Shown here in pieces: positions 56,562 through 62,885 of a stretch of DNA of 64,000 bases. Location of the stretch: positions 304,812 to 368,811 of the forward strand of contig CBDAUA010000001.1 in the NCBI GenBank assembly GCA_965200425.1, read 5' to 3'. The notes beneath the pieces were generated by a model. The model was not told where the DNA came from and searched no databases. It saw only the letters and a list, made by a program, of their open reading frames with translations. The DNA comes from Arenicellales bacterium (lineage in GTDB: Bacteria > Pseudomonadota > Gammaproteobacteria > Arenicellales > JAJDZL01). Numbering within the stretch: position 1 is the first letter of the stretch; every line of letters begins with the position of its first letter. The position numbers and the translations under genes were made by a program.

Positions 56562-57509
56562 ATGAAGAAAATTAGTATTGTTGCGTTGTTTGCTATGAGT
56601 CTCAGCATGTCAAATTTCGTCGCTGCAGCGGACGTTGTTATCGGTGTACCAAATTGGCCTTCAGTAAAAGCAACTGCTGACATATTGAAATATGTAATTG
56701 AAGAAAATTTAGGTTTGGAAGCAGAACTTCAAACAGCTACAAACCCAATTGTGTTTGAAGCTATGGATCAAGATAAGATGCATATCCATCCCGAAGTGTG
56801 GCTACCAAACCAGCAAAACTTGCACGATACCTATGTAACACAAAAGAAATCGGTGAAGATGAATCCACATGGAGTACCTTCCTTCACTGGGATTTGCGTA
56901 ACCAAAGATACAGCCGCTCGGACTGGCATAACTTCTTTGCATGAACTAGCAGATCCAGACATGGCAGAAAATTTTGACACCGATGGTGATGGCAGGGGCA
57001 ATATTTGGATCGGTGCACCGGGCTGGGCTTCGACAAATATTGAAATGATTCGAGCCAAGAGCTATGGTTTTGATGAAACAATGAACTTGGATGTGATTGA
57101 TGAATCAGTTGCTTTGGCGCAAGTGGACGCGGCAGTGGCGAAGAACGAGAATGTCGTTTTCATGTGCTATACCCCACATTCCATGTTTACATTATTTGAC
57201 TTAGTTCCTCTAGAAGAACCTGCCCATGATCCAGCAAAATGGGTGATCGTGCATCCAACTGACGACCCGGATTGGTTAGAAAAGTCGATGGCCCCCGTAG
57301 CCTGGAGTGTTCCTACGATTCACATCATGTTCAGCACTACACTTGAAGAGAGACATCCTGAAGTGACATCAATGCTGTTAAAAATCCAATTCACCGTGGA
57401 AGATCTATCCGACATGACTTATGCTGTGCTCGTCGATAAAAAGGATACCGCTGACTATGCCAAAGAGTGGGTGACTGCAAATTCTAGCATCGTAGATTCC
57501 TGGTTGTAG
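56562..57509 (+). CDS. proX: Glycine betaine-type ABC transporter substrate-binding protein (ProX/OpuAC-like), secreted
   Basis: It has a signal peptide (MKKISIVALFAMSLSMSNFVAAA). The GVPNWPSVKATA start of the mature domain is typical of the OpuAC family. It is divergent from the proVW-containing operon. Confidence 0.75.
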   Translation: MKKISIVALFAMSLSMSNFVAAADVVIGVPNWPSVKATADILKYVIEENLGLEAELQTATNPIVFEAMDQDKMHIHPEVWLPNQQNLHDTYVTQKKSVKMNPHGVPSFTGICVTKDTAARTGITSLHELADPDMAENFDTDGDGRGNIWIGAPGWASTNIEMIRAKSYGFDETMNLDVIDESVALAQVDAAVAKNENVVFMCYTPHSMFTLFDLVPLEEPAHDPAKWVIVHPTDDPDWLEKSMAPVAWSVPTIHIMFSTTLEERHPEVTSMLLKIQFTVEDLSDMTYAVLVDKKDTADYAKEWVTANSSIVDSWL

Positions 57510-57766: not shown

Positions 57767-59671
57767 ATGTCAGAAAAAGAGCTTAACGAGAAAGTCTCTT
57801 TCAAAGCTGAGATACAACAGTTACTGAATCTTGTCATTCATTCTCTGTACTCAGAGAGAGAAATCTTTTTGAGGGAACTAATTTCCAACGCGTCTGATGC
57901 ATGCGGAAGACTGCGATTTGAATCAATTCTTAACCCCGATATGAGGGAAGGTGAATTTAGCCCATCCATCGATATCGAAGTCAATGAAGCAGCTAAAATC
58001 ATAAAGATAAGTGATAACGGTATCGGTATGACTCGCGAAGAGGTTGTAGAAAACATCGGTACTATCGCTCGATCAGGCACAAAAGAATTTGTCGAATCAC
58101 TGTCCGGAGACGAGTCAGTTGACTCGCGCTTGATTGGTCAATTCGGAGTTGGTTTTTATTCCGCATTTATGGTTGCTGAACAGGTGAAAATTTTGACTAG
58201 AGCCGCTGGCCAAGCACCTGACAGTGGAATTCTTTGGGTATCCGATGGCGTGAGTGGATACAACTTATCAGGAGCCACCGTAGACCAGCACGGTACTACA
58301 ATTACTCTCAAGTTGAGAGAGGATGCAGAGGATTTCCTGAATGTAGATACCGTGAAACAAGTGATAAAAAAGTATTCCAATCACATTTCGATTCCAATTC
58401 GTTTGCAAGTTGAATCGGAAGAAGAATCGGGCATTGAATGGGAAACGCTCAATTCTGCTTCAGCGTTGTGGATGCGTAACAAAAACGAGATTACCGATGA
58501 AGAATACAACGATTTCTACCAATCTCTCTCCTTTGACTCAGATGAGCCCCTATTGCGGTTGCACAATCGAGTTGAGGGAAATCTTGAGTACGTAACACTG
58601 TTGTACATTCCATCCAAAGCACCATTTGACCTTTGGGATGTCCGTCGACGAAAGGGGATCAAACTCTATGTGCGGCGCATCTTCATCATGGATGACTCCG
58701 AAAACCTAATGCCAGGTTATCTGCGCTTCGTAAAGGGCGTCATTGATTCTGATGACTTGCCTCTAAATGTTTCTCGTGAATTTTTACAGAAGAACAATCA
58801 AGTCAATAGAATTCGCTCCGGTTCCGCACGAAAATTGCTAGGTGAACTAAGCAAACTCGCTAAAAATGATGCGGACAAGTATCAAACCTTTTGGGATGAA
58901 TTTGGAAAAACATTCAAAGAAGGTATGACAGAAGATCACGACAATAGTAAAAAAATTGCTGAATTACTCCGGTTTTCTACATCACAGAGCGAAGGATCGC
59001 AACAGACCGTCTCGCTTCAACAATATGTGGATGGTATGCAAGAGAAGCAAGAATCCATCTACTATATTACAGCGGATACTTATAAATCAGCGAAAGGCTC
59101 ACCTCATCTTGAGGTTTTCGACAAACATGGTATTGAAGTTCTGCTCCTAAGTGATCCTATTGATGAGTGGGTCCTCATGCATCTTCATGAGTTCGGTGGG
59201 AAACACCTTAAATCAATTGCAAAAGGAGATCTAAATCTTGATTGGTTGGAAGGGGACCAAACGGAAGAACTAACTGACTCGACGGTTGATTCATTGTTGG
59301 ACAAGCTGAAATCCTCATTGGTGGATCGAGCGAACGATGTTCGAACAACCAATCGATTGACTGACTCCCCGGCGTGTTTGGTAGTCAATGAATTTGGTAT
59401 GAGCCGAAATATGTCTAGAATTTTAGAATCGACCGGGCAAAAAGGACCTGCCGATATGAAACCTATATTAGAGGTTAACCCGGATCATCCCCTGATTCAG
59501 CACATGGTCAAAACCGATGACAATTTAGATGACTGGGCACATGTTTTGTTTGACCAAGCAATTCTGAGTGAGGGTGCACCTTTGGAGAAACCGGCGGATT
59601 ATGTTCGACGAATTAATTTGCTACTCACCGATACCTTTAGCGAACAAAGCCCCATCATTATTGCACCTTAA
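57767..59671 (+). CDS. htpG: Molecular chaperone HtpG (Hsp90)
   Basis: The ORF is 634 aa. It has the N-terminal GHKL ATPase signature (LIHSLYSEREIFLRELISNASDA, GQFGVGFYSAF). Confidence 0.95.
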   Translation: MSEKELNEKVSFKAEIQQLLNLVIHSLYSEREIFLRELISNASDACGRLRFESILNPDMREGEFSPSIDIEVNEAAKIIKISDNGIGMTREEVVENIGTIARSGTKEFVESLSGDESVDSRLIGQFGVGFYSAFMVAEQVKILTRAAGQAPDSGILWVSDGVSGYNLSGATVDQHGTTITLKLREDAEDFLNVDTVKQVIKKYSNHISIPIRLQVESEEESGIEWETLNSASALWMRNKNEITDEEYNDFYQSLSFDSDEPLLRLHNRVEGNLEYVTLLYIPSKAPFDLWDVRRRKGIKLYVRRIFIMDDSENLMPGYLRFVKGVIDSDDLPLNVSREFLQKNNQVNRIRSGSARKLLGELSKLAKNDADKYQTFWDEFGKTFKEGMTEDHDNSKKIAELLRFSTSQSEGSQQTVSLQQYVDGMQEKQESIYYITADTYKSAKGSPHLEVFDKHGIEVLLLSDPIDEWVLMHLHEFGGKHLKSIAKGDLNLDWLEGDQTEELTDSTVDSLLDKLKSSLVDRANDVRTTNRLTDSPACLVVNEFGMSRNMSRILESTGQKGPADMKPILEVNPDHPLIQHMVKTDDNLDDWAHVLFDQAILSEGAPLEKPADYVRRINLLLTDTFSEQSPIIIAP

Positions 59672-59769
59672 TCTGTTTGAACATTCTGACTTGTACATTG
59701 ATCAACTATAGTCTTTATAATTTTGTGACACTGTCGGGACTGTCAGATATGCACCCCTGACAAGTTAAT

Positions 59770-59846
<77 letters not shown>

Positions 59847-59859
59847 TTAAATTAAATAT

Positions 59860-60170
59860 GCGCCTGTAGCTCAATTGGATAGAGCAACGGCCTTCAAATA
59901 GGAGCCTTTACAGGGAAGTAGGGAACTTGTAAAGTGAAGGGCACTGTATCGGTGAAACCTTAACTCGTAGCGGAGATGGCAATACCGAGGAAACCAAGTG
60001 AATTATTCATTTGGGATCCGTAGAGGCTATACGTGTCCCACCTGAGATGGTGAAGATATAGTCCAGACTACAAACTGGCAGAGCATACAAAACCAGTTTC
60101 TCGACCAGGCAATGAAAATTGTAGTAGTAAGCTAAGCCGTAGGTTACAGGTTCGAGTCCTGTCAGGCGTG
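59860..60170 (+). tRNA. tRNA-Arg (anticodon UCU) interrupted in the anticodon by a 237-nt group I intron
   Basis: Exon 1 (59860..59894, GCGCCTGTAGCTCAATTGGATAGAGCAACGGCCTT) plus exon 2 (60132..60170, CTAAGCCGTAGGTTACAGGTTCGAGTCCTGTCAGGCGTG) fold into a 74-nt cloverleaf. The anticodon stem is ACGGC/GCCGT, the loop CTTCTAA and the T-arm ACAGG-TTCGAGT-CCTGT. The result is colinear with E. coli argU. Confidence 0.85.
59895..60131 (+). ncRNA. Group I intron (IC3-like, tRNA-type), no internal ORF
   Basis: It follows a U and ends in G. It carries core-like blocks: AAATAGGAGCCTTTAC near the 5' end, GGTGAAACCTTAA, ATGGCAATACCGAGGAAACCAAG and GAAGATATAGTCCAGACTAC. From memory, these parallel the Azoarcus tRNA-Ile, cyanobacterial tRNA-Leu and Tetrahymena intron cores. 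Confidence 0.8.
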
Positions 60171-60224
60171 CTCAATTGAATTCAGCTCAATTGGTATAGT
60201 AATATATAAACGCAAACGAGTCAT

Positions 60225-60301
60225 GGTGGGCGTAGCTCAACTGGTAGAGCCCTGGATTGTGGTTCCAGTGGTTGTGGGTTCAAGACCCATCGTCCACCCC
60301 A
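60225..60301 (+). tRNA. tRNA-His (anticodon GUG) with the extra 5' G(-1), CCA encoded
   Basis: GGTGGGCGTAGCTCAACTGGTAGAGCCCTGGATTGTGGTTCCAGTGGTTGTGGGTTCAAGACCCATCGTCCACCCCA. The anticodon stem is CTGGA/TCCAG and the loop TTGTGGT. G(-1) pairs with C73. Confidence 0.9.
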
Positions 60302-60339: not shown

Positions 60340-61302
60340 ATGCGACTACCAACACTCAAAGAAATTCAATCGGCTGCCACGATCATCAGTGAACATATGC
60401 AACCGAGTCCACAATACAGGTGGCCTTTGCTTTGTGAGCGTTGTGAAACTGACGTTTGGGTTAAACATGAAAACATGACTCCGATCGGCTCGTTCAAAGT
60501 GCGAGGTGGAATTTACTACCTGTCTCAAATTCCTGCCTCTGATGTAATAACGGCAACACGAGGAAATCACGGCCAATCCGTGGCCTTTGCAACTCGAATT
60601 CGTGGGAAAAAGACCACAGTAGTCGTGCCTCACAACAATAGCAAGTCAAAAAATGCATCGATGCGTGCGCTGGGTGCGGAAATTATTGAACATGGTCAAG
60701 ATTTTTCCGAAGCTCACGAGTATGCGCACCAAAGAGCCAAAGAGCAGGGCTTGCATTTTGTTCCTTCTTTCGACAGAAAGCTCGTGGTCGGCGTCGCAAC
60801 TATGGGATTGGAATTATTTCAAGCGGTGTCACAATTGGACGCAGTCTACATTCCGATCGGTTTAGGCTCCGAAATTTGTGCTGTGATTGCAGTTCGTGAA
60901 GCATTGGGCTTAAAGACAGAAATAATTGGTGTCGTTGCTGAAAATGCGCCCGCTTATTTTTTGTCGTTTAATTTGCGTCGAGTCGTAACAACATCGTCTG
61001 CGAATACACTCGCTGATGGTATTGCCGTTCGAATTCCAAATGCCGAATCTCTTGACATTATTCTTCAACATGTTTCTCGTGTCGTTAAAGTCTCCGACTC
61101 GGAGATTACAGGCGCAGTTCATGGTTATTTTGACGACACACATCAATTAATTGAAGGCGCAGGTGCTGCGAGCTTGGCTGCATTACTAAAAGAGAAGGAA
61201 CGCATGAAAGGTAAACGAGTCGCGGTAATCGCTTCCGGCGGTAACATCGACAAGGAATTATTTCGACGGATTATGGCCTCTGACGACAAACTTTCCGCGT
61301 GA
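60340..61302 (+). CDS. PLP-dependent serine/threonine dehydratase (threonine ammonia-lyase, short form without a regulatory domain)
   Basis: It has the PLP-lysine motif (PIGSFKVRGG) and a glycine-rich loop (ASGGNI). The ORF is 320 aa. Confidence 0.8.
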   Translation: MRLPTLKEIQSAATIISEHMQPSPQYRWPLLCERCETDVWVKHENMTPIGSFKVRGGIYYLSQIPASDVITATRGNHGQSVAFATRIRGKKTTVVVPHNNSKSKNASMRALGAEIIEHGQDFSEAHEYAHQRAKEQGLHFVPSFDRKLVVGVATMGLELFQAVSQLDAVYIPIGLGSEICAVIAVREALGLKTEIIGVVAENAPAYFLSFNLRRVVTTSSANTLADGIAVRIPNAESLDIILQHVSRVVKVSDSEITGAVHGYFDDTHQLIEGAGAASLAALLKEKERMKGKRVAVIASGGNIDKELFRRIMASDDKLSA

Positions 61303-61334: not shown

Positions 61335-62885
61335 ATGGCTTATCCTTCTCGCCGAAAACGTCGCAAACGCCAAGCTAATTCCATTGAAACCCTTAAATGG
61401 CGTAAGGTCGTCAATCCTTACCCACCGTTTAACATTCTTTCTGACGACCAAGTCGAAGAAGTCCATCGAGCTTCTTTAACTGTTCTGCGCGATTTCGGGA
61501 TTAAATTTCTGAGTCCAATCGCCCGTAATGTCTTTATCGATGCAGGTGCAGAAGTCGACCATGATTCCGAAATGGTACGGTTCGATCCTGCTCAAATCGA
61601 GGAATTAATCGCTTTACCACCATCAAAATTCAAGCTGGCGGCGAGGAATCCACTCCGGTCAACCGAGTTCGGCGGAAACACTTTAAACTTTGCGACTGTA
61701 GGAGGCCCTGCATTTGTTTCGGATCTCGATAAAGGGCGAAGAGCGGGAACGATGCAAGATCTGGAGAATTTTTTTAAGGTTACCAGTCAACTTGAAATCT
61801 TTCACCTATGCGGCGCCTCGCCCTTCGAACCTCAAGACCTGCCGGCAGAATCTCGTCATCTCGACAAATACTTTGCTGCGATTACCCACCATGATCGCAT
61901 TTGGATGACAAGTATGCTAGGGGCGTACCGGGCTAGAGACGGAATCGAAATGCTCAAGATCGTACATCGGCTAAGTGACGATGAAATCAATTCTCGACCG
62001 TTGACTATCGGTAATATCAATGTCAATTCACCACGCCAGGTTGATCAAGCCATGTCAGATGCAGCCATCGAATTTGCTCGATTTAGTCAACCGGTTTTGG
62101 TAACACCCTTTACATTGCTAGGTGCGATGGCGCCAACAACAATGGCGGGGTCATTGGTTCAACAGAATGCCGAGGCATTGGCTTGTATTGCCTTAACGCA
62201 GATTGTACGACCCGGTACACCTGTAATGTACGGTAGTTTTTCAAGCAACGTCGATATGAAACTAGGCGCACCTGCATTTGGGACTCCTGAATATGTCCGT
62301 ACGACCTTGGCCAGTGGGCAGCTAGCACGCCGATATCGACTTCCGTATCGCTCTAGTAATACGAATGCTTCGAACGCACCGGATGGGCAGTCTACTTACG
62401 AAAGCTGTATGTCAGTTTGGGCAGCGACTTTAGCACACACAAATCTGTTGCTACATGGAGGTGGATGGTTGGAAGGTGGTCTCGTCGCATCGTTCGAAAA
62501 GCTGATCATCGATGCAGAAATTTTACAGATCATGACCAAATCGCTAGAACCGATTCCTGTCAACAAAGACACTCTTGCAGTTGATGCAATCGCAGACATT
62601 CCGCCTGGTGGACATTTTTTCGGCTCGCCTCATACGATGGAGCGGTATAAAGATGTGTTTTATAAACCTCTACTTTCAGATTGGCGAAATTTTGAAACCT
62701 GGTTCGCAGATGGCGCCGAACATTCCTTTCAAAGAGCAAATCGAATCTGGAAGACTCTACTGCGTCGATATTCGAAACCAGAAATCGATCTGGATACTCT
62801 AGAAGAACTAAGAGCATTCATTGTTCGACGGAAACATGAAATCGAAAACGGTCATGAATGTGCGGTTCTTGATGGAACAAATTGA
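61335..62885 (+). CDS. MttB-family methyltransferase (non-pyrrolysine type; glycine betaine / quaternary amine : corrinoid methyltransferase-like)
   Basis: The 516-aa ORF is uninterrupted, with no in-frame TAG. It matches the MttB superfamily over its full length by recall and is paralogous to the partial gene at 1..465. Confidence 0.8.
   Translation: MAYPSRRKRRKRQANSIETLKWRKVVNPYPPFNILSDDQVEEVHRASLTVLRDFGIKFLSPIARNVFIDAGAEVDHDSEMVRFDPAQIEELIALPPSKFKLAARNPLRSTEFGGNTLNFATVGGPAFVSDLDKGRRAGTMQDLENFFKVTSQLEIFHLCGASPFEPQDLPAESRHLDKYFAAITHHDRIWMTSMLGAYRARDGIEMLKIVHRLSDDEINSRPLTIGNINVNSPRQVDQAMSDAAIEFARFSQPVLVTPFTLLGAMAPTTMAGSLVQQNAEALACIALTQIVRPGTPVMYGSFSSNVDMKLGAPAFGTPEYVRTTLASGQLARRYRLPYRSSNTNASNAPDGQSTYESCMSVWAATLAHTNLLLHGGGWLEGGLVASFEKLIIDAEILQIMTKSLEPIPVNKDTLAVDAIADIPPGGHFFGSPHTMERYKDVFYKPLLSDWRNFETWFADGAEHSFQRANRIWKTLLRRYSKPEIDLDTLEELRAFIVRRKHEIENGHECAVLDGTN

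Follow-up and report, generated by a model that had tools for sequence, protein, structure and literature searches.

An Arenicellales-related gammaproteobacterium carries a tRNA-Arg(UCU) gene whose anticodon is interrupted by a predicted group I intron

The stretch of DNA analysed here, referred to as the window, comprises 64,000 nucleotides (nt) from the chromosome of an Arenicellales-related gammaproteobacterium (contig CBDAUA010000001.1), and it contains a gene for the arginine transfer RNA with the anticodon UCU, tRNA-Arg(UCU), that is split into two exons by an insert of 237 nt. We consider it very likely, with a probability of roughly 0.93, that this insert (59895-60131) is a group I intron with an IC3-like architecture, that it belongs to the Arg.3Ug family and that it carries no homing endonuclease, a reading based on sequence comparison and predicted folding. 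An earlier sequence-only reading of the window had arrived at the same central proposal, a group I intron between nucleotides 34 and 35 of tRNA-Arg(UCU), and homologs, covariation and the literature now agree with it. The split gene is laid out as follows.

59860..59894, + strand: tRNA-Arg(UCU) 5′ exon, positions 1-34, ending C32 U33 U34 (ARAGORN on the joined exons)
59895..60131, + strand: predicted group I (IC3-like) intron, 237 nt, without an open reading frame (ORF), omega-G at 60131 (Rfam, covariation fold and ORF scan)
60132..60170, + strand: tRNA-Arg(UCU) 3′ exon, from C35 to discriminator G73 (ARAGORN on the joined exons)

When 59860-59894 and 60132-60170 are joined, ARAGORN recognizes a 74-nt tRNA-Arg(tct) that folds into a normal cloverleaf and has its anticodon at position 35, which bears out the proposal of the sequence-only reading that the two segments form a canonical tRNA-Arg(UCU). 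That reading had also placed the 237-nt insert after the first anticodon nucleotide, with a U before it and a G as its last base, and a direct read of the sequence confirms that U34 precedes the insert and that its final base (60131) is G. By the ARAGORN call, the insertion site is 34/35 and the host a tRNA-Arg with the anticodon UCU, the combination that marks the Arg.3Ug family. An alternative splice register, shifted one base to the right (C at both 59895 and 60132), was rejected, as it gives C...C ends that are non-canonical when set against U and G. The two halves of the anticodon stem lie on opposite sides of the intron and covary across it in 35 sequences (RNAalifold; columns 3-7 with 457-461), which speaks directly for the two exons working as a single tRNA. 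The gene had been expected to escape or mislead routine finders, and it does both: in the 64-kb window, ARAGORN at its default settings and the tRNA model of Rfam report only a tRNA-Pro and a tRNA-His and leave tRNA-Arg(UCU) unseen. When introns are allowed, ARAGORN finds the correct outer boundaries, misplaces the intron and miscalls the gene as a selenocysteine tRNA, tRNA-SeC(tca); in this mode the program returns calls of tRNA-SeC or tRNA-Ser, and they were discarded.

The same arrangement recurs in many other genomes. One genome per species was scanned for the core pattern GAAACCTWA-N(6-36)-ATGGCAAYRCCGAG, which occurs once in the window and in none of 100 shuffles, yielding at least 120 loci. 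A brute-force application of ARAGORN to all pairs of splice sites gave too many spurious tRNAs, after which a split-gene rule was adopted, under which an intron had to be preceded by CTT, end in G and be followed by CTAA, with the anticodon stem paired. Among the loci listed, at least 37 besides the window contain a tRNA-Arg(UCU) split at 34/35, each with a U before the intron and a G at its end, each yielding tRNA-Arg(tct) in ARAGORN when joined, and with introns of 211-627 nt. The 5′ exon is kept in these loci, and omega-G is present in all 38 family members when the window copy is counted with those at least 37 listed loci. In metagenome-assembled genomes (MAGs) of Arenicellales and of other Gammaproteobacteria, blastn aligns all 311 nt at 78-88% identity, while partial alignments extend to Bacillota, Bacteroidota, Acidobacteriota, Chloroflexota and Desulfobacterota, in both cases among the matches listed.

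The fold of the intron was modelled by hand, from P1 to P10, on an alignment (A1) of 35 split-gene sequences that included 10 nt of each exon. In this model 97.2% of the cells are paired, the pseudoknot of P3 and P7 included, as against 87.0% in shuffled controls and 33-41% when the partners are slid by 1-3 columns; a consistent P3-P7 core fold, which the sequence-only reading had named as a check on itself, is thereby recovered. Compensatory changes occur in 29 of the 62 modelled pairs (P2 8, P3 5, P5a 2, P6 2, P7 1, P8 1, P9.0 2, P9a 4, P9b 4), and none of 500 shuffles reaches any of the observed measures. RNAalifold, run without the hand model, returned P1, P2, P3, P4, P5, P5a, P6, P8, P9a, P9b, three of the five pairs of P9.0 and the anticodon stem; the program is unable to predict the P7 pseudoknot. 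The predicted elements are these.

59899..59904, + strand: internal guide sequence UAGGAG, in continuous pairing with the anticodon loop CUU/CUA (the slash marks the exon junction)
59906..59934, + strand: P2 hairpin, 59906-59914 with 59926-59934 around an 11-nt loop GAAGUAGGGAA; 8 of 9 pairs compensatory
59939..59944, + strand: P3 5′ strand, pairing with 60033-60038; 5 of 6 pairs compensatory, 100% of cells paired
59949..59988, + strand: P4-P5-P5a domain, with P4 formed by 59949-59954 and 59983-59988
59958-59959 with 59978-59979, + strand: P5, within a tetraloop-receptor-like CCUUAAC/GAUGG motif
59964-59966 with 59973-59975, + strand: P5a; two pairs covary
59989..60019, + strand: P6/P6a hairpin, base 59989-59991 with 60017-60019; two pairs covary
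59994-60002 with 60006-60014, + strand: P6a, pairing read from the sequence
60025..60031, + strand: P7 5′ strand, pairing with 60057-60063 in a pseudoknot with P3; 96.7% of cells paired
60033..60038, + strand: P3 3′ strand (hand model, 35-sequence alignment)
60039..60052, + strand: P8 hairpin, CACC, loop UGAGAU, GGUG; covariation (A-U to G-C) in 8 sequences
60053..60063, + strand: joining segment J8/7 and P7 3′ strand, AAGAUAUAGUC; equals the Rfam consensus and is nearly invariant in the family
60067..60128, + strand: P9 domain, with P9.0 formed by 60067-60071 and 60124-60128; 2 pairs compensatory
60075-60078 with 60105-60108, + strand: P9a; 4 pairs compensatory
60109-60113 with 60118-60122, + strand: P9b hairpin, GAAA tetraloop at 60114-60117; 4 pairs compensatory

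All 62 modelled pairs are standard in the window copy. P1 lies at the 5′ splice site and consists of four pairs, C32 with G59904, U33 with A59903, the wobble pair of U34 with G59902, and the first intron nucleotide, C+1, with G59901; this helix is the same in 35 of 35 sequences, and RNAalifold likewise gives a 4-bp P1, CUUC/GGAG. P10 is formed by UAG (59899-59901), in which G59901, A59900 and U59899 pair with C35, U36 and A37 of the 3′ exon (CUA, 60132-60134). A longer, 6-bp P1 (GGCCUU/AGGAGCC) was rejected, since the invariant GAGCC fails to covary with the variable exon positions 29-31 (GGCC, GCCC, GGAC, UGUC); the 4-bp P1 together with P10 is compatible with all sequences. Further into the core, P4 and P5 are invariant in the 35 sequences, and the P4-P5-P5a domain runs colinear with its Azoarcus-type counterpart, UCGGCGAAACCUAAG...UAUGGCAACGCCGA. 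The distal part of P6 varies in length among homologs. P7, which in group I introns is the site of guanosine binding, contains one compensatory change, from U-A to C-G, in two of the homologous loci (L100 and L116), and its strands match the Rfam consensus AGACUA...AAGAUAUAGUC. The two pairs at its inner end (60030-60031 with 60057-60058) were not retained as supported: they have no covariation behind them, 8 of 35 sequences leave one of them unpaired, and the equivalent positions are unpaired in Azoarcus-type introns. The J6/7-P7 block GUAGAGGCUA and the J8/7-P7 block AAGAUAUAGUC align both to the Rfam consensus and to an Azoarcus-type intron (locus L020), and together may form the guanosine pocket and the catalytic core.

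A covariance-model search adds to this picture. The Rfam Intron_gpI model (RF00028) matches 59885-60081 over its full length with a score of 30.4 bits, with E-values of 6.6e-6 in a search of 571 nt and 7.4e-4 in a search of the whole window on both strands. With the same model, Azoarcus-type tRNA-Ile(CAU) introns score 54.8 and 47.7 bits, and the nearest homolog among the matches listed scores 36.4. Of the checks that the sequence-only reading had proposed, this one came out divided, with an E-value of 7.4e-4 at whole-window scale and a score short of the curated cut-off. The group I core blocks it had quoted are all found in the sequence, and the Azoarcus blocks it had set beside them are correct, as they occur both in locus L020 and in the row for the Azoarcus type that the seed alignment of Williams (2020) contains.

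Several points weigh against the group I reading. The Rfam score lies below the gathering score of 50, and at the gathering threshold nothing is reported for the intron. P1 and the greater part of P4, P5 and P7 never vary, and their support comes from conservation and analogy, not from covariation. The U-A pair of P10 forms in only 17 of 27 sequences. In the literature, we found no splicing experiment on the Arg(UCU) 34/35 family; the splicing tests of Nakagawa et al. (2026; PMC13011429) concern Asn and Asp 35/36 introns only. Regarding the first of these points, the gathering threshold of RF00028 is a curated annotation criterion rather than a structural feature; Williams (2020; bioRxiv 10.1101/2020.01.27.920355) describes the Rfam seed as having no bacterial sequences and sets the cut-off at 18-20 bits. 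Because the curated threshold is poorly suited to bacterial tRNA introns, the structural features were tested directly.

Among the competing explanations, the one that holds up best accepts a group I intron and supposes that it does not splice itself under the conditions of the cell, and that a protein of the host, for instance a chaperone or a synthetase-like cofactor, is required. In vivo, many group I introns rely on the assistance of proteins, the P2 loop and P9a insert differ from those of Azoarcus, and self-splicing in this family is a prediction. We nevertheless regard such dependence as unlikely, as the intron has a compact IC3-like architecture in which the GAAA hairpin and the receptor-like P5 are placed as in Azoarcus-type introns, and none of its neighbouring genes is a cofactor candidate. 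Azoarcus-type introns are efficient self-splicers.

A second explanation, which we consider very improbable, is that the gene is a dead pseudogene, its insert being a former group I intron or some other insertion that has lost splicing, with AGA decoded by an intact gene elsewhere. The window covers only 64 kb of the genome, and a second tRNA-Arg(UCU) gene is possible outside it; the low Rfam score could likewise be taken as a sign of decay. The same might be said of the tRNA itself, which has a G1-U72 pair at the top of its acceptor stem, a discriminator G and no encoded CCA (ARAGORN; 59860 and 60169-60173). However, G1-U72 and the missing CCA occur together in 13 of the 14 full-length-aligned Arenicellales-type copies among the blastn matches listed (the exception, L057, encodes CCA), and they are lineage traits rather than marks of decay. 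Other gammaproteobacterial copies of tRNA-Arg(UCU) have G1-C72 and encode CCA. A pseudogene is also at odds with the 62 intact pairs of the window copy, with the covariation between the exon halves of the anticodon stem, and with the conservation of the intron, which is about 85% identical to its nearest Arenicellales copies among the matches listed, against 70-75% for the flanking coding DNA. Since the intron is better conserved than its flanks, the difference fits purifying selection acting on the intron RNA. In Beggiatoa and Thiomargarita, moreover, the interrupted gene was the sole tRNA-Arg-TCT found (PMC4853749). Finally, that the resemblance to group I introns arose by chance and the tRNA halves are unrelated fragments can be dismissed for practical purposes, for although the Rfam score falls under the gathering threshold, the E-value is 7.4e-4 at whole-window scale, at least 37 homologous split genes show strong covariation, and identical entries have been published (Williams, 2020; Nakagawa et al., 2026).

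A functional group I intron would be expected to splice by the established chemistry of its class, from which the following steps are taken, while the anatomy (pairings and ends) is computed here. The tRNA cluster would be transcribed as a single precursor, in which the guide sequence UAGGAG would pair with CUU/CUA so that U34 forms the U-G wobble of the 5′ splice site. The bond after U34 would then be attacked by a free guanosine from its binding site in P7, and the terminal G of the intron (60131) would next occupy the same pocket. With exon 2 held by P10, the 3′-hydroxyl of U34 would attack the bond after G60131, and the joining of U34 to C35 would restore the CUUCUAA loop and the anticodon UCU, creating C35, a major identity element for ArgRS. 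The tRNA would be completed by RNase P, by trimming of its 3′ end and by addition of CCA.

The split gene sits in a small cluster of tRNA genes, whose other members and candidate promoter are listed here.

59692..59721, + strand: sigma-70-like promoter candidate, TGTACA, 18-nt spacer, TATAAT (consensus scan, 10 of 12 positions; a match to consensus only)
59770..59846, + strand: tRNA-Pro(UGG), upstream neighbour in the cluster (ARAGORN; Rfam tRNA model, 69.6 bits)
60226..60301, + strand: tRNA-His(GUG), downstream neighbour in the cluster (ARAGORN; Rfam tRNA model, 60.2 bits)

On one side, tRNA-Arg is flanked by htpG (57767-59671) and tRNA-Pro, and on the other by tRNA-His and a threonine dehydratase gene (60340-61302). 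The order htpG, tRNA-Pro, tRNA-Arg, tRNA-His is common to Arenicellales MAGs with the same intron (L076, L114 and others), and among the matches listed the intron is conserved at this syntenic locus across many Arenicellales-like genomes. In marine metagenomes, tRNA-Arg(UCU) genes that lack the intron and have the same 48-nt exon junction are very common, with at least 120 matches (L203-L322, e.g., L250, L283, L254), and they are natural empty sites for the intron. Some of them come from more distant relatives and show the order htpG, Pro, Arg, His as well; because the intronless genes share it, the intron is an insertion into an ancestral locus. In the spacer between tRNA-Arg and tRNA-His (60170-60194), the D-arm motif of exon 1, GCTCAATTG, is repeated twice (GCTCAATTGAATTCAGCTCAATTGG). 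This repeat was dropped as a feature, as it is not conserved in the closest relatives examined, and it is probably due to chance or local duplication. Further out, a protein of the MttB family (trimethylamine methyltransferase-like; 61335-62885, + strand) scores 326.7 against an NCBIfam cut-off of 525 and is probably a non-pyrrolysine homolog, and a ProX-like or choline-binding substrate-binding protein of an ATP-binding cassette (ABC) transporter is encoded at 56562-57509 (+ strand); the two together hint at quaternary-amine metabolism.

A working tRNA-Arg(UCU) is needed in this genome, because AGA accounts for 147 of the 863 arginine codons (17%) in 31 long ORFs of the window, and six AGA codons lie in htpG. 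It is doubtful that the intron-bearing gene is the sole tRNA-Arg(UCU) across the Arenicellales-like lineage and has long been inherited vertically. If it were the sole gene, all decoding of AGA and probably of AGG (about 21% of arginine codons here) would depend on the ribozyme, and splicing could gate translation, a regulatory role that is conceivable because splicing needs guanosine and Mg2+.

The intron itself has no ORF of 20 or more amino acids on the + strand (59895-60131), as the sequence-only reading had maintained in describing it as free of a homing endonuclease. An endonuclease-bearing relative does exist within the family. The intron of L008 from Chitinophagaceae (L008:3252-3898, - strand; 627 nt) contains, inserted after P5 in the distal part of P6, a gene for a 154-amino-acid PD-(D/E)XK endonuclease (PF11645, E = 5.6e-30). 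Since there is no ORF in the window intron and an endonuclease in L008, the former is the endonuclease-free version of a sometimes-mobile family. Two other long introns, L037:981-1603 (+ strand, 603 nt) and L078:987-1530 (+ strand, 524 nt), have no ATG-started ORF of 50 or more amino acids in their inserts, which are possibly decayed endonuclease genes. A tRNA-Arg(UCU) split at 34/35 is also encoded on an 83-kb viral contig (L144, IMGVR_UViG_3300037502_002960; minus strand, 89-398), where the intron is 73% identical to the window copy and reads CTT/CAGTTATAGGAGC...GGTAAG/CTAAAGCG at its junctions; such a phage-borne copy could be a vehicle for horizontal spread. In eight gammaproteobacterial MAGs (L002, L035, L062, L068, L071, L073, L080, L082), an insertion of 30-70 nt in the P1 loop (A1 columns 11-73) is accompanied in six of the eight (exceptions L035 and L062) by an intron that begins with U instead of C, which suggests a subfamily with an extended P1 hairpin. 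Separately, and unrelated to the intron, a Sterolibacterium locus with a tRNA-Ile intron carries a Polynucleobacter-1 small RNA (RF01718, 94.3 bits) at L018:523-666 (+ strand).

Introns of this type and position have been described before, also within the Gammaproteobacteria. According to Flood et al. (2016; PMC4853749), the tRNA-Arg-TCT of Ca. Thiomargarita nelsonii had gone unannotated because of an interrupting, putative group I intron, and in the passage of that paper citing MacGregor (2013) the same holds for the tRNA-Arg-TCT of Beggiatoa BOGUAY. The seed alignment of Williams (2020; bioRxiv 10.1101/2020.01.27.920355) contains a row named Rba190.Arg.3Ug with the P1 CUUC...GGAG. In Nakagawa et al. 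(2026; mSystems, PMC13011429), Table S5 lists "Arg (TCT) 34/35" in Bacillota, Bacteroidota and Desulfobacterota, the classifier assigns most of these entries to IC3 and two to IB3, the legend of Fig. 6 describes an endonuclease-bearing tRNA-Arg(UCU) intron in Campylobacterota, and some Bacteroidota Arg(UCU) introns carry a PD-(D/E)XK gene, in agreement with L008. One of our homologs, L116 (Desulfonema magnum CP061800, 70% identity over 346 aligned nt), corresponds to the GCF_017377395.1 row of Table S5. These reports, together with the at least 37 loci found here, overturn the suggestion of the sequence-only reading that a UCU host is unusual in such genomes. Introns of this kind at this site are already on record for many bacteria, and what is new is the host lineage only; an Arenicellales-like host is not among the published table entries examined, which leave out the Pseudomonadota rows of Table S5.

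An Arenicellales-like gammaproteobacterial lineage, probably marine or sponge-associated, is accordingly added to the known hosts of Arg(UCU) 34/35 introns. The finding leaves our knowledge of group I introns unchanged, and its value is one of annotation. Default tRNA finders and the Rfam gathering threshold both miss the gene, so genomes of the lineage appear to have no tRNA-Arg(UCU), and such an omission distorts estimates of genome completeness and codon capacity.

Of the known systems, the Arg(UCU) 34/35 introns (Arg.3Ug) are the closest, sharing with the window the host tRNA, the site U34/C35, the P1 CUUC/GGAG, the blocks UAGGAGCC, UCGGUGAAACCUUAAC, GAUGGCAAUACCGAGGAAAC, GUAGAGACUA and GGUGAAGAUAUAGUCCAGAC, and the 3′ end GUAAG/CUAAG, whereas the window copy differs in being short (237 nt), with a minimal P6, no endonuclease and a lineage-specific P9a insert. 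The IC3 intron of Azoarcus tRNA-Ile(CAU) is colinear with it through the core from J3/4 to P7 (L020), and in both the guide sequence abuts P2 and a GAAA-capped P9 hairpin is combined with a receptor-like P5. In contrast, the Azoarcus intron resides in tRNA-Ile, at 36/37 rather than 34/35, and has another guide sequence; P6 reads GCCAAG there and GGAAAC here, the P9 domain is longer here, the Azoarcus type scores 54.8 and 47.7 bits against 30.4 in Rfam, and overall identity between the Azoarcus-type copy L020 and the window intron is 53%. The cyanobacterial and plastid tRNA-Leu(UAA) intron lies in a different tRNA, and the core blocks of the two differ (GGGAAACCUA...AAGGCAAUCCUGAGCCAAG rather than GGUGAAACCUUAA...AUGGCAAUACCGAGGAAAC). 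It is classed as IC3, the subgroup that the window intron resembles, and usually has no ORF, and it shares the 34/35 site after CUU, a likeness that the sequence-only reading had pointed out and with which the junction CUU/a...g/AAAA in Williams (2020) agrees.

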